From IMG/VR virus record IMGVR_UViG_3300025889_017816, positions 55,475 to 119,474 of that record: a stretch of 64,000 bases of DNA. One strand, 5' to 3'. Shown in pieces: positions 15,929 through 59,500 of this stretch. Position 1 is the first letter of the stretch. Each line of letters starts with the position of its first letter. Origin of the DNA: a virus. Both the position numbers and the translations under genes were made by a program. Below the pieces are notes generated by a model that was given only the letters and a program-made list of their open reading frames with translations, did not search any database and was not told the origin of the DNA.

Positions 15929-17100
15929 TGGACAGCGAACGCCTAGACATTGCTGAAGATATAGCCGAATCTATAGTAAGACTTGTTCTTGCGAGCGAAG
16001 ATAAAGAAGCATCTTATGATTTAAAAGAATCTTTAGATCAACTTCCGAAATCTGCTCCACGGTTAGAACAAACATCTAATGCCTTTGAAGAGGCCAAAGA
16101 AAAGGGACTTACTGATAAACAAATTTTAGCTGGTTTTGGTGGCAAGAAAGCCAAAGAAATGATGTTATCAGGAAATTCAGGGGGTTCTGAGGACAGTGAC
16201 ATTTCCGAAGCCTCAGGTGAAGGTGGAGATTCTCCTATGGAACTAATTGTAGAAGCTGTTACAGGTATCAATGAAAATACAGCAGCCATATTAGCAGGAT
16301 TAGAATCTGGTGATTTTGGTGGAGGTGAAGACGAAGGTCTTTTAGAAAACCTCAGTGACAAGTTTGGTGGAATGTTCGCTGGGTTAGGTCGCACCCTGAC
16401 TGGTGCAATCAGAAGTATAGGTAGTGGAATTGCTCGCCTGGGTGGTGGAGCGGTCAGTATGGCTGGCCGAGGAGTCAGTATGGCTGGCCGAGGAGCACTT
16501 TCTATGATGCCTTCAGGTATGGCTGCCACAATGGGAGCTTCCGTGGCCGGTTCGTCTGCTCTTGCTATCGGTGGTACGGTCTTAGGTGGTCTGGCTGCTG
16601 GAATGGCTATAGGTGACCAATTTAATACTTCTGTAGAAGAAGGCGGGTCGGGTAATCTTCGTGACTGGTGGAGGAATAGTAGATTATTGGGATTGAGAAA
16701 GCAATCAATTGCAGAAAGAGAAAGTGAAGAACAAATCAATGCTAGCGGCGATGCTGCAGCGCGTGCAAGAGGATACAGTAGTTTTGCAGAAATGCAGGCG
16801 GCGAATGATGCGAGACGAGCTGCCCAGAGTCAAAACCAAGAAATGTTAGGTGAAGTTATTAATACCCCACGGATTAATACATCTGAGTCTTTACGAGAAG
16901 AAACTGAATATATGGCTGAAGGGCACAGAATTGCTTCGACTGAGGAACTAGCAGCTGGTCTTGGTCTTAATTATGCTCCAAACAATACTACAAATATTGT
17001 AAATAATGCTGGATCATCTCAAACAGCAACCATACAAACAAGAGACACACACAACAGTTATAGAAGATATCAGGATAAAAGACAAAACAGAGTTTATTAA
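15928..17100 (+). CDS. Putative tape-measure/hub protein (gp29 position)
   Basis: Gly/Ala-rich, C-terminal APNNTTNIVNN segment, follows gp26/gp51 with TGATG overlap; 21-bp tandem duplication at 16453-16494. Confidence 0.5.
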   Translation: MDSERLDIAEDIAESIVRLVLASEDKEASYDLKESLDQLPKSAPRLEQTSNAFEEAKEKGLTDKQILAGFGGKKAKEMMLSGNSGGSEDSDISEASGEGGDSPMELIVEAVTGINENTAAILAGLESGDFGGGEDEGLLENLSDKFGGMFAGLGRTLTGAIRSIGSGIARLGGGAVSMAGRGVSMAGRGALSMMPSGMAATMGASVAGSSALAIGGTVLGGLAAGMAIGDQFNTSVEEGGSGNLRDWWRNSRLLGLRKQSIAERESEEQINASGDAAARARGYSSFAEMQAANDARRAAQSQNQEMLGEVINTPRINTSESLREETEYMAEGHRIASTEELAAGLGLNYAPNNTTNIVNNAGSSQTATIQTRDTHNSYRRYQDKRQNRVY

Positions 17101-17104
17101 ACTG

Positions 17105-17140
17105 AAAAAGAGGGGGGCTTAAAGGCCCCCCTCTTTTTTT
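17105..17140. terminator. Bidirectional rho-independent terminator
   Basis: AAAAAGAGGGGGGC-TTAAAG-GCCCCCCTCTTTTTTT between convergent genes. Confidence 0.93.
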
Positions 17141-18023
17141 AATCTTCAGCTAACTTAGCAAAATAGCTAAGAGTATCATCCTCGTCTTCATCCTCCATTG
17201 GAGAAGGAGCACTCCTAATAACAGGAGCTTCCTCTGAAATCTCAGAGATTTGATCTGCTGTCATAGCAGAGACAGGATTACCCTTTAAAACCATTTCGAG
17301 CTTTCTCTTAAGCTCATCATAACTCTTGAAATTCTTTTCGTCTAAGAATTCCTGTAAAGAGTGTTGCTGATTCCAAATAACTTCAATATCTGAATCGGAA
17401 TCTGCAATTGCAGAAGGCGAATCAAACTCGGACTTGTCGTAGTTGCGATAACCCTCAACATTACGAATCTTCAGCTTGAAGTCTGCACCAGCCCAGAAGT
17501 CAAAAGGATTAATAGGATCTTCATCCTCAAACTGTGGGTGCATTACGTCCTTGATCTTATCAAAGATTTTCTTACCAAACTTGTATAGGAAAACCTTCCC
17601 ATCATTCTCAGGATTAGCTGAATCCTTAACTACGAGAATGTTAGAGATATGACTTAGACGGCGCTTCTGCTTACGAGCAATTTCCTTATTGCTCTCAACA
17701 CCTGAATTCCAAAGCTCATTGTTAAGCTCAGAAACAGGATCGGGTTGATTAATAGTGGTCAAGCTGTTCTCAATATACCAGCGACCTGTGGGACCCTGAA
17801 ACCCATGATCCCAAACACGAACCCATGGAATCTCCTCACCCTTTGGCGGAGGAAGAAAGCGGATCACAGCATAGCCGTTGCCTGCCTTATCAACTGTAGG
17901 CTTCCAAAAGCGATCATCACCACGTGGCTTTGATGATGGATTAGAAATCTTCTCAACCTCTTTCATGAGGTTTTCGAAGTTGCCACGGCTACTGCGTAAA
18001 TCTGATAAACTTGAAAATGACAT
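17139..18023 (-). CDS. gp32: Single-stranded DNA-binding protein gp32
   Basis: DDRFWKPTVDKAGNGYAVIRFLP...WYIENSLTT...YFAKLAED; start ATG 18023 after AAGGAG. Confidence 0.96.
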   Translation of the reverse strand: MSFSSLSDLRSSRGNFENLMKEVEKISNPSSKPRGDDRFWKPTVDKAGNGYAVIRFLPPPKGEEIPWVRVWDHGFQGPTGRWYIENSLTTINQPDPVSELNNELWNSGVESNKEIARKQKRRLSHISNILVVKDSANPENDGKVFLYKFGKKIFDKIKDVMHPQFEDEDPINPFDFWAGADFKLKIRNVEGYRNYDKSEFDSPSAIADSDSDIEVIWNQQHSLQEFLDEKNFKSYDELKRKLEMVLKGNPVSAMTADQISEISEEAPVIRSAPSPMEDEDEDDTLSYFAKLAED

Positions 18024-56434: not shown

Positions 56435-56632
56435 TCAAGCCCTTTGCACCAGGGTTCGGTGACAGACCGTGCACTGGACACCCTTCACCCCATTGGGGGC
56501 CTGCAAGGGGTTGATGTGGACCTGGGCATCACGCCAGTAGGTCCACGTGTTGCAGGTCTTGCAGTAGCTGCTAACCTTAGTGGACGGTTCCTGCCAAACT
56601 TCGCTTCTCCAACTCTCGTACCGCATTTGCAT
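56435..56632 (-). CDS. Small zinc-ribbon protein
   Basis: CKTC...CTVC; follows a repeat RBS (true start may be the second Met at 56626). Confidence 0.7.
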   Translation of the reverse strand: MQMRYESWRSEVWQEPSTKVSSYCKTCNTWTYWRDAQVHINPLQAPNGVKGVQCTVCHRTLVQRA

Positions 56633-56691
56633 CTCCTAGTGTGATCTCTAATCTGTGCTATAATATAGCACCTTTGGAACCAAAAGTCAAG

Positions 56692-56947
56692 AGCATGGGA
56701 AACCCCCTTCGGTGACTATGCCGGAGGGGGAACGGCGTCCCGTTTTTCACCATTAATCGGGATTTCTATTCCTCGGCCGACTCGCACGGCAGGCAGTCCC
56801 GTATCGCCTGTATTAATTAACATTACAAATGAGGCCGAAAACAGCGCGAGTGTTTCTCCCGCATGTCCTCTGTGGGGGTCAGCCCTAGGAGGCGATGATT
56901 TTTCGGTGACTAGCCGTTTGTCATCCTTTGGCTAAACTGTTTCCAGC
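56692..56947 (-). ncRNA. Candidate structured non-coding RNA (~255 nt)
   Basis: Own promoter at 56953-56981, no RBS or ORF, several inverted repeats and a 3' GC-rich hairpin. Confidence 0.55.
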
Positions 56948-56952
56948 ATATT

Positions 56953-56981
56953 AATATATCACCATTGATATCAAATGTCAA
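56953..56981 (-). promoter_or_regulatory. Sigma70 promoter TTGACA-17-TATATT with extended TG, lacking the leader/RBS of the other copies
   Basis: TTGACA at 56981-56976, TG-A-TATATT ending at 56953. Confidence 0.8.
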
Positions 56982-57241
56982 GAGGGCAATACCACTTCCA
57001 CAGCACCGTCTGGTTGAACCACCTCATAATGTACAGAGACCAGCTGGTAAATCTCTGTCCACTGAGCTTCGCACTCATTACACCTAATCCTCAGCCATGC
57101 CTCACCAGGAGAGCATTCTTCACCAGGGACTCCTGGTGATCCTGGTGGGGTAAACCCTTGGGGACCAGTGCCTAGGTCAGTTGAAGTGCAAAAGATGCAA
57201 ACGCTGCACCCGGATTCTACATATTCGGTATAGGTTTTCAT
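56978..57241 (-). CDS. Small zinc-ribbon protein
   Basis: CIFC...CNEC.AQWTEIY; ATGA-coupled. Confidence 0.7.
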   Translation of the reverse strand: MKTYTEYVESGCSVCIFCTSTDLGTGPQGFTPPGSPGVPGEECSPGEAWLRIRCNECEAQWTEIYQLVSVHYEVVQPDGAVEVVLPS

Positions 57242-57432
57242 AGGTATAGGTAATGGTGTTTGGCGGCCTTGAGCTGCTCAGATTCTTCTACGGGTACCAC
57301 ACGGACACCAGTTATAATTCCATCGGGGTGGAGCATGGAGGATATATCTTCTCGCAGATCGCGCACGAGCGGCTTAAGCTCGGCCTCTGGGAGATCAGAT
57401 ATCTCCACCTCTACCACGAAGGAAATCTTCAT
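57238..57432 (-). CDS. Hypothetical early protein
   Basis: 64 aa, ATGA overlaps at both ends. Confidence 0.65.
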   Translation of the reverse strand: MKISFVVEVEISDLPEAELKPLVRDLREDISSMLHPDGIITGVRVVPVEESEQLKAAKHHYLYL

Positions 57433-57608
57433 CCCTTGCCAAGAATGAAGTTCACCGCCATATAGCGCAGTGAGGTTTGGTGAGTTTGTCCGTCAATACG
57501 GACGGCAAAGTATACACCAGGAGTTTCCTCCTTAATGTATCCAGCAATGCTTCCGGTTGCTGCTCGCACTTCCTGGTATCCGTTGCTCATAAACCACTCC
57601 TCATTCAT
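57429..57608 (-). CDS. Hypothetical early protein, 59 aa (not in ORF track)
   Basis: MNEEWFMSNGYQEVRAATGSIAGYIKEETPGVYFAVRIDGQTHQTSLRYMAVNFILGKG*; fills the gap, ATGA-coupled. Confidence 0.65.
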   Translation of the reverse strand: MNEEWFMSNGYQEVRAATGSIAGYIKEETPGVYFAVRIDGQTHQTSLRYMAVNFILGKG

Positions 57609-58647: not shown

Positions 58648-58953
58648 CTAGTAAGAAACTCCTTGGATCAGCTCACGGTTCAGGAACACAGGTTCGAGAT
58701 TATATCGCTTTTGGTGACAGGCGATGCACACATATTTGCCCTCGGATTTGCGCATCACCAGGGAGTTATCAGCTCGCCTACGCCCCGTATAATGAGCAGA
58801 ATGTTTGGCACAGTACTGACACAATGGGCGCCCGTTTGCATGGCGGCGAATGCTCAGGCGCTTGTGAAACTCCTGGCGCTCCTGCTGCAGCATCATGCTG
58901 CTCCCAGAATCTGTGCTGCGCTGGACCCGCTTTCTCTGGCCTACCATCTTCAT
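58648..58953 (-). CDS. Basic zinc-finger-like early protein
   Basis: CQYC...CIACH; first gene of the array, directly after a repeat RBS. Confidence 0.7.
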   Translation of the reverse strand: MKMVGQRKRVQRSTDSGSSMMLQQERQEFHKRLSIRRHANGRPLCQYCAKHSAHYTGRRRADNSLVMRKSEGKYVCIACHQKRYNLEPVFLNRELIQGVSY

Positions 58954-59038: not shown

Positions 59039-59093
59039 GGATGAGAATGAGTTTCAACCTCAGGTAGGCGGATGAGAATGAGTTTCAACCTCA
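59039..59093. repeat. 24-bp direct repeat x2 (GGATGAGAATGAGTTTCAACCTCA)
   Basis: Identical copies at 59039-59062 and 59070-59093. Confidence 0.9.
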
Positions 59094-59229: not shown

Positions 59230-59500
59230 TATCCCGCAGAGCTCCCGTAGCATTCCCGCAATAGTATATGCAAAAACATATATGTGCGTTCTACCAGGAG
59301 TCCCGCAAAATTTCCCACAAATATTCCCGCGCTTTTTTCCCGCGCTTTTCCCGCGCATTATCCCGTATATAATGCACGCATCCCATCTACCACGAATCCC
59401 GCGCATAATCCCGTATAGTATCCCGCATAACATTATTGCTATAATATATGCACACGTTCTACCACGGATCCCGCGCTAAATCCCGCACAACAACCCGCGC
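59230..59500. repeat. Iteron-like TCCC(G) array with ~11-12-bp periodicity
   Basis: TCCC at 59232, 243, 254, 301, 313, 325, 338, 349, 361, 381, 397, 409, 421, 469, 481 (ACCC at 493), all on one strand. Confidence 0.85.

Follow-up and report, generated by a model that had tools for sequence, protein, structure and literature searches.

Known systems

PeSLs are elements of the hyperplastic regions of T4-type phages that combine sigma-70-like early promoters with terminating or attenuating stem-loops (Arbiol et al. 2010, PMC2839356; Comeau et al. 2014, PMC4122927). As described in the portions of these two papers considered here, the stem-loops often contain G and C tracts, lie between the -35 and -10 elements or over the -10 element, and are followed by an SD and an ATG at the 3' end; PeSLs flank orphan ORFs and mediate cassette shuffling (PMC2839356; PMC4122927). 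The terms 'noncoding', 'non-coding' and 'small RNA' do not occur in the main texts of either paper, supplements aside.

The replication origins of T4 offer a further comparison. In the portion of the source considered here, oriF and oriG are described as a promoter followed by an A+T-rich unwinding element of replaceable sequence and use an R-loop primer, and oriE is described as needing an early promoter and having 12-nt iterons near the transcriptional divergence point (PMC3016281).

An early promoter array with one cassette lacking a protein gene

The window, meaning the whole stretch of DNA that was analysed, comprises the last 64 kb of a 119-kb IMG/VR record with an estimated completeness of 67%. 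The record carries myovirus markers (baseplate hub and wedge families, dCMP deaminase), and its 311-aa ATPase has relatives at <60% identity in 1,306 phage records, mostly named for Escherichia, Klebsiella and Vibrio. We read this uncultured phage as a distant T4-like myovirus.

On the minus strand between 55135 and 59016 we found ten exact matches to an array consensus, TTGAC-N14-GTGNTATANT; allowing ≤1 mismatch, the window holds 14 matches against 0.21 expected. All ten are sigma-70-type promoters of the form TTGAC(A/T), 17 nt, TATATT with an upstream TG, packed into 3.9 kb on one strand. Downstream of nine of them come a common leader, an SD of the AGGAG type and an ORF 33-135 aa long. The tenth promoter (56953-56981) is the sole one without leader, SD and ORF, as the earlier note on this DNA had stated.

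Judged by its sequence, the array matches published PeSL cassettes. Near-consensus sigma-70 early promoters recur, that of the tenth cassette being one of the ten copies; stem-loops lie in the spacer (TTTGG-TT-CCAAA) and, as the palindrome GTGCTATATTATAGCAC, over the -10 element; and the elements, with an SD and ATG at the 3' end, border small orphan genes. A G/C-tract stem-loop before the promoter, with differences between close relatives clustering at such elements, is a further likeness to the PeSLs as far as the cited portions describe them. Two differences stand against these likenesses: the tenth cassette has no SD, start codon or ORF, which is what would make it unusual among such cassettes, and on the transcribed strand the C-tract here comes before the G-tract, in contrast to the G-loop-C order that those portions give for the RB49/phi1 form. 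The unit is a real, ORF-less, promoter-bearing cassette in an array of a known kind.

Several other features of the early region were recorded. Two exact copies of a 24-nt direct repeat, GGATGAGAATGAGTTTCAACCTCA, occupy 59039-59062 and 59070-59093, just upstream of the first array promoter. The related phages L005, L006 and L007 carry a similar promoter array, TTGACAAATGG...GGTGCTATATT (for example at L005 6783, 7160, 7392 and 8829), and in several of their units the longest ORF found opens with an ATG only 7 nt past the promoter match, which suggests that these early mRNAs may be leaderless and start at that ATG. Three small early proteins of the window (56435-56632, 56978-57241 and 58648-58953) contain paired CxxC motifs and are zinc-ribbon-like in look.

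Coding potential, RNA families and homologues

No leader, AGGAG or usable ORF was found in the 258 nt 3' of the promoter at 56953-56981. The only nearby ATG (56949) meets a stop after 5 codons, in agreement with the earlier note, and the frames of the one relative (see below) are interrupted over the unit by stops and indels. A 71-aa open frame gave one marginal match (E 9e-4) among 1.84 billion protein representatives, and an 88-aa antisense frame gave none in the protein search. Reading the 5-codon ATG and the 71-codon frame as one gene across a TAG was considered and rejected: neighbouring genes use TAG as a stop, and the frame is interrupted in the relative. That the unit lacks a conserved reading frame and is non-coding is supported.

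Rfam 15 (ribozymes, riboswitches, group I introns, 6S, tmRNA and others) gave no match in the window at gathering threshold. When E was relaxed to 10 on the unit, the sole match was a meaningless 11-bit lncRNA, and ARAGORN found no tRNA or tmRNA in the unit. The earlier note had recognised no named family, and none emerged from this check.

A blastn search of the unit against 50,697 phage records returned no match. With the flanking 87-aa and 65-aa proteins as IMG/VR queries we retrieved a single relative contig (hereafter the relative) and one further 80%-identical protein on a 720-base contig. An alignment of ATPase relatives yielded 66 loci of related phages (about 900 kb), over which nhmmer and blastn gave no match apart from the relative. 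DNA patterns taken from the unit retrieved, in IMG/VR and metagenome contigs, only the same relative or chance matches; the latter, which lay in high-GC contigs, unrelated metagenome contigs and a DNA methyltransferase gene, were discarded. A covariance model of the 5' domain, R1, matched 925 kb of sequence only at E 0.2-8.6; because the best two matches (L016 and L014) lie inside a 72-aa protein gene without protein similarity to the unit, we took them as chance. The pairing and conservation comparisons below draw on two haplotypes only, which are 88% identical. The unit's own stretch is present in runs of 14 studies.

Anatomy of the unit and its conservation

The elements of the unit, all on the minus strand, are as follows.

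56953-56981, minus strand: early sigma-70-type promoter of the ORF-less unit (TTGACA, 17-nt spacer, TG, TATATT; spacer palindrome TTGATATCAA)
56831-56949, minus strand: conserved 5' block, RNA 1-119 of the predicted transcript (0/119 differences from the relative)
56936-56947, minus strand: 5'-terminal hairpin GCUG-GAAA-CAGU (from folding; invariant)
56698-56703, minus strand: 3' GUUUCC, which could pair with GGAAAC as an alternative to the 5' hairpin (invariant)
56910-56935, minus strand: hairpin UUAGCC / 14-nt loop / GGCUAG, inside a 48-nt module (56891-56938)
56839-56868, minus strand: terminator-like hairpin GCG.GAG / CUC.GCGC (-12 kcal/mol), then UGUUUU (terminator scan and fold)
56802-56830, minus strand: A+T-rich hypervariable segment, RNA 120-148 (14/29 positions differ from the relative)
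56757-56801, minus strand: second conserved block, RNA 149-193, 45 nt (CGGGA/UCCCG and GACU/AGUC arms)
56703-56744, minus strand: 3' hairpins AACGG-GACG-CCGUU and CCCCCU...AGGGGG, directly upstream of the next promoter
56703-56730, minus strand: CCCCCU...AGGGGG (C5U/AG5) hairpin (from complementarity), abutting the next promoter
56662-56690, minus strand: next array promoter, marking the unit's downstream limit; leader and SD belong to the 65-aa zinc-ribbon-like gene (56435-56632)

The promoter hexamers and their 17-nt spacing are identical in the relative, and most of the intervening sequence (alignment columns 333-348) has been replaced. The promoter haplotypes in runs X3 and X9 differ in the spacer only, at 56968, 56969 and 56971. 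Downstream, the 119 invariant nucleotides are followed by the A+T-rich segment, which has one base inserted at its 5' edge besides the 14 differing positions and retains its A+T-richness; by the 45-nt core, with one substitution and one insertion; and, 3' of this core, by an 8-nt deletion in the relative. The rest of the unit shows 13-20 differences per 60 columns, where neighbouring genes have about 1-9 and intergenic stretches 12-20; the 3' half of the unit diverges at the level of intergenic DNA. In this comparison of two sequences, constraint is visible only in the first ~119 nt and the 45-nt core. A contig of run X6 (56817-57300) has four differences, none in 56831-56949 or elsewhere in the unit; run X9 has no cover over 56708-56809 and weighs neither way. 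Over 240 nt the neighbouring 65-aa gene differs at a single position, which shows that blocks have been exchanged recently in this region and that such recombination could mimic constraint in the unit. A non-coding early transcript is probably made, with its 5' ~119 nt under constraint.

All helices are invariant between the two haplotypes except the inner 3' hairpin, and since the conserved blocks do not vary they are uninformative on pairing. None of the 38 variable columns falls within the 90 columns of the proposed local helices, which were picked after the alignment was seen. GGCCG of the 45-nt core complements CGGCC at 56833-56837 and crosses the CGGGA/UCCCG arm, again by invariant pairs. 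In the AACGG/CCGUU hairpin the sole change is that of the loop from GACG to GAAA. The C5U/AG5 hairpin keeps its outer stem in the relative and has its inner stem swapped for a different, fully paired one (12 bp, z -3.57).

The earlier note had placed this CCCCCT..AGGGGG hairpin at 56703-30, where it is indeed present, and had taken it to close the RNA of the unit. It lies directly before the next promoter and fits that promoter better, as the PeSL-type stem-loop or attenuator of the following cassette. It abuts the promoter, its pairing is kept by compensating changes, and it forms part of the only unusually stable segment of the unit (see below); its role as a terminator is putative.

An alternative 3' end comes from a consensus terminator scan, which matched 56863-56845 plus CTGTTTTCGG at the end of the conserved 5' block. 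The U-run there is short and partly paired in the MFE structure. In the tail past the 3' hairpin there are only three U, and no strong terminator lies between the unit and the 65-aa gene. Terminator-ended trans-acting sRNAs of bacteria and phages have a sigma-70 promoter, a 5' hairpin, a poorly paired middle and a 3' GC hairpin with a U-run. The unit resembles them in having its own sigma-70 promoter, a length of about 110 nt to the hairpin, and the same order of hairpin, poorly paired stretch and GC-rich hairpin with U-run, the last as a consensus match only. It differs in the shortness of the U-run and in having no family in Rfam 15, and it is known from sequence only.

Folding of the unit

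The earlier note had proposed a highly paired, pseudoknotted RNA of ~255 nt. Absence of an ORF and the individual hairpins that it listed were borne out, including the GCUG-GAAA-CAGU tetraloop and the UAGCC/GGCUA stem with which the transcript would open; high pairing was not. The whole unit (258 nt) has an MFE of -85.8 kcal/mol (z -1.67), and an equally stable fold was reached by 8 of 200 shuffles. The unit ranks 349 among 1,850 GC-regressed windows of this genome (z -0.82), and its antisense strand folds better than its sense strand. The 5' 115 nt are similarly ordinary (rank 649 of 3,980 genome windows, z -0.91); only the 3' 69 nt are unusually stable (rank 93 of 5,972, z -2.4).

The three inverted repeats said to cross each other are complementary and do cross. 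In the relative, 56803-09/56890-96 loses two of its seven pairs and 56773-78/56833-38 one of six, leaving 56780-85/56846-51 unchanged; by our own arithmetic, several complementary pairs of 6-7 bp are expected in 258 nt. A deletion in the relative removes the helix GUCACC/GGUGA of the global MFE structure. With ordinary stability and two of the three crossing helices not kept, a single ~255-nt highly paired pseudoknotted fold is not supported.

An 11-nt direct repeat, TTCGGTGACTA, does lie near both ends (56708-18 and 56902-12), as described in the note. Its significance did not hold: two or more matches at ≤1 mismatch turn up in 15 of 100 shuffles, and the second copy is absent from the relative. 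The 9-mer core TTCGGTGAC (RNA sense GUCACCGAA) occurs on one strand, inside 455 nt, at 56455-56463, 56708-56716 and 56902-56910 (0.15 expected), with no further copy elsewhere in the 119-kb genome; two copies are in the unit, one of which the relative lacks, and the third is near the 3' end of the 65-aa gene.

Elsewhere in the genome, the best-folding 258-nt windows after GC correction are 17045-17302 (minus strand, z -4.2) and 57293-57550 (minus strand, z -3.5), the latter inside the small early genes at 57238-57608.

RNA-library contigs and a 48-nt module

Among the assembled contigs of one RNA library, a 151-nt contig equals 56848-56998 with zero differences. As it crosses the promoter, it points to read-through or DNA carry-over and not to a transcript begun at 56953-56981. 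A second contig matches the shared leader at 56632-56677, and we read its loose-end letters as running into the 66-aa cassette; the RNA library therefore contains no fewer than two fragments of the phage's early region.

A 48-nt module (56891-56938), made up of the second hairpin and UCACCGAAAAAUCAUCGCC, recurs in runs X3 and X9, where its flanks differ and its depth is higher. In run X3 the depth is 57-60 in bins over 56878-56945 and about 12-14 beside them, with loose ends at 56938 and 56891; record 23 of run X9 carries the module. These observations hint that it belongs to a wider element.

An iteron-like array near the unit

At 59230-59500, read in minus-strand sense, 13 copies of RCGGGA, mostly followed by T/A, are spaced by 11-13 nt within clusters that are separated by repeated GTGGTAGA and A+T-rich blocks. 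This array lies at the transcription divergence point and the cumulative GC-skew minimum and resembles the evenly spaced 12-nt iterons of T4 oriE, as far as the cited portion describes them (PMC3016281). Two more distant relatives contain the same motif array (L009 3735-3905 and L010 3934-4135), and homologues of the 101-aa zinc-ribbon-like early protein lie beside the iteron array in the relatives L005, L007 and L009. By analogy the array is a candidate replication origin or regulator-binding site. We also considered an iteron link of the unit itself and rejected it: the RCGGGA excess there is striking against the whole window and marginal against the early region, and the flanks are unlike the iteron consensus.

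Weighing the explanations

Our preferred reading, to which we assign a probability of roughly 0.4, is that the unit gives a non-coding early transcript whose functional part may be an RNA of ~110 nt. The array consists of PeSL-type cassettes in a hyperplastic early region, and the cassette at 56692-56981 is one without a protein gene. Transcription by host RNA polymerase would begin near 56945-56949 and yield a non-coding transcript, the constrained first ~110-119 nt of which would comprise the 5' hairpin, the second hairpin, a poorly paired stretch of ~40 nt (UCACCGAAAAAUCAUCGCCUCCUAGGG...) and the GC-rich hairpin. The latter, with UGUUUU, could end a small RNA of ~110 nt that would presumably act in trans, and read-through would add the variable A+T-rich spacer, the conserved 45-nt core and the strong C5/G5 hairpin, a putative stem-loop or attenuator ahead of the next promoter. 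We favour the ~110-nt early RNA because the conserved block ends at the terminator-like hairpin (56863-56845 plus UGUUUU).

The cassette might also be non-functional filler, a PeSL-flanked unit that lost or never had its ORFan, for instance by PeSL-mediated recombination, and that is transcribed only through its position in the array. Ordinary folding energy, the intergenic-level divergence of the 3' half and restriction to one narrow lineage all suit filler, as does the fact that nearby blocks of zero divergence arise for other reasons; PeSL recombination is also reported, in the portion of the source considered here, to insert, delete and replace cassettes with crossovers in the stem-loop (PMC2839356). 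It is harder to reconcile with promoter hexamers retained around a replaced spacer, with 119 unchanged nucleotides beside patches of 13-20 differences per 60 columns, with the lack of any trace of a former protein and with the presence of the stretch in runs of 14 studies, and we hold it to be rather unlikely, if well worth keeping in view. Distinctly less probable is one ~255-nt highly paired, pseudoknotted RNA with its own terminal hairpin, serving as a decoy, antitoxin mimic or ribozyme. Such a fold could draw on the complementarity of 5' GGAAAC and 3' GUUUCC, on CGGCC/GGCCG crossing CGGGA/UCCCG and on a possible 8-bp helix ACUCGCGC/GUGCGAGU, all kept in the relative; on the GAAA tetraloop and the change of GACG to GAAA in the relative; and on the 3' UUUCCC tail, which in the relative has lost its partner to a deletion and gained a new one, GGGAAA. 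The retained helices, being invariant, carry no test of pairing, however, and the z-scores (-1.67 and -0.82), the pairs lost from two of three long-range helices, the deleted MFE helix and the lack of an Rfam match even at E up to 10 all argue against it.

Two further explanations place the function in cis. The unit could be an R-loop primer site, with a promoter and A+T-rich stretch as in T4 oriF and oriG, or DNA bound by an iteron-recognising protein. Like those origins, as far as the cited portion describes them, it has a promoter driving an untranslated stretch with an A+T-rich segment that alters its sequence yet remains A+T-rich, and, as at oriE, an iteron array lies at a transcription-divergence point nearby, 2.3 kb upstream (PMC3016281). 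The unit itself contains three RCGGGA at 59-60-nt spacing. Its A+T-rich part, however, is about 120 nt downstream of the start and not adjacent to it, between conserved GC-rich blocks, and is known from sequence only. The excess of RCGGGA is marginal in the GC-richer early region (4 others in about 1.9 kb by our own count), the T/A found after 11 of the 13 iterons is missing from the unit's three copies, and the 8-nt deletion of the relative falls within the second spacing, so that this spacing is lost there; the iteron array, 2.3 kb away, is itself the better origin candidate. We regard a cis-acting origin or binding site as improbable. Still less credible is a long structured 5' leader that would control, in cis, the 65-aa zinc-ribbon-like gene downstream. 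The two are not divided by a strong terminator (the tail has three U), they occur together in both haplotypes, and they share the 9-mer GUCACCGAA, whose only copies in the 119 kb are two in the unit and one close to the gene's 3' end. Against this, a complete promoter with leader and SD, belonging to the 65-aa gene, lies between that gene and the unit, and one of the unit's two 9-mer copies is absent from the relative.

For a non-coding early RNA of ~110 nt, a more specific role was also considered. The unpaired stretch contains CUCCUAG (56885-56891), a 7-nt match to the CUAGGAG SD region common to four array leaders. Duplex energies of this stretch against the array leaders were no better than against other start regions and do not single the leaders out, and the anti-SD proposal was set aside. 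That the cassette carries RNA as mobile cargo, an early ~110-nt regulatory RNA pairing through CUCCUAG with the CUAGGAG of the array's own leaders, is a long shot; such an RNA would shut off translation of the early cassettes, or a longer pseudoknotted form would act on a host factor.

The argument depends on sequence conservation between two nearly identical haplotypes of an uncultured phage, and it amounts to a modest lead rather than a discovery. If the unit is an RNA carried as cargo, the 48-nt module with other flanks would mark a wider, undescribed RNA family, and one more early phage RNA would join a class that is still poorly known. A conserved non-coding RNA as cassette cargo would, if true, extend the idea of PeSL-mediated shuffling from orphan proteins to RNA genes.
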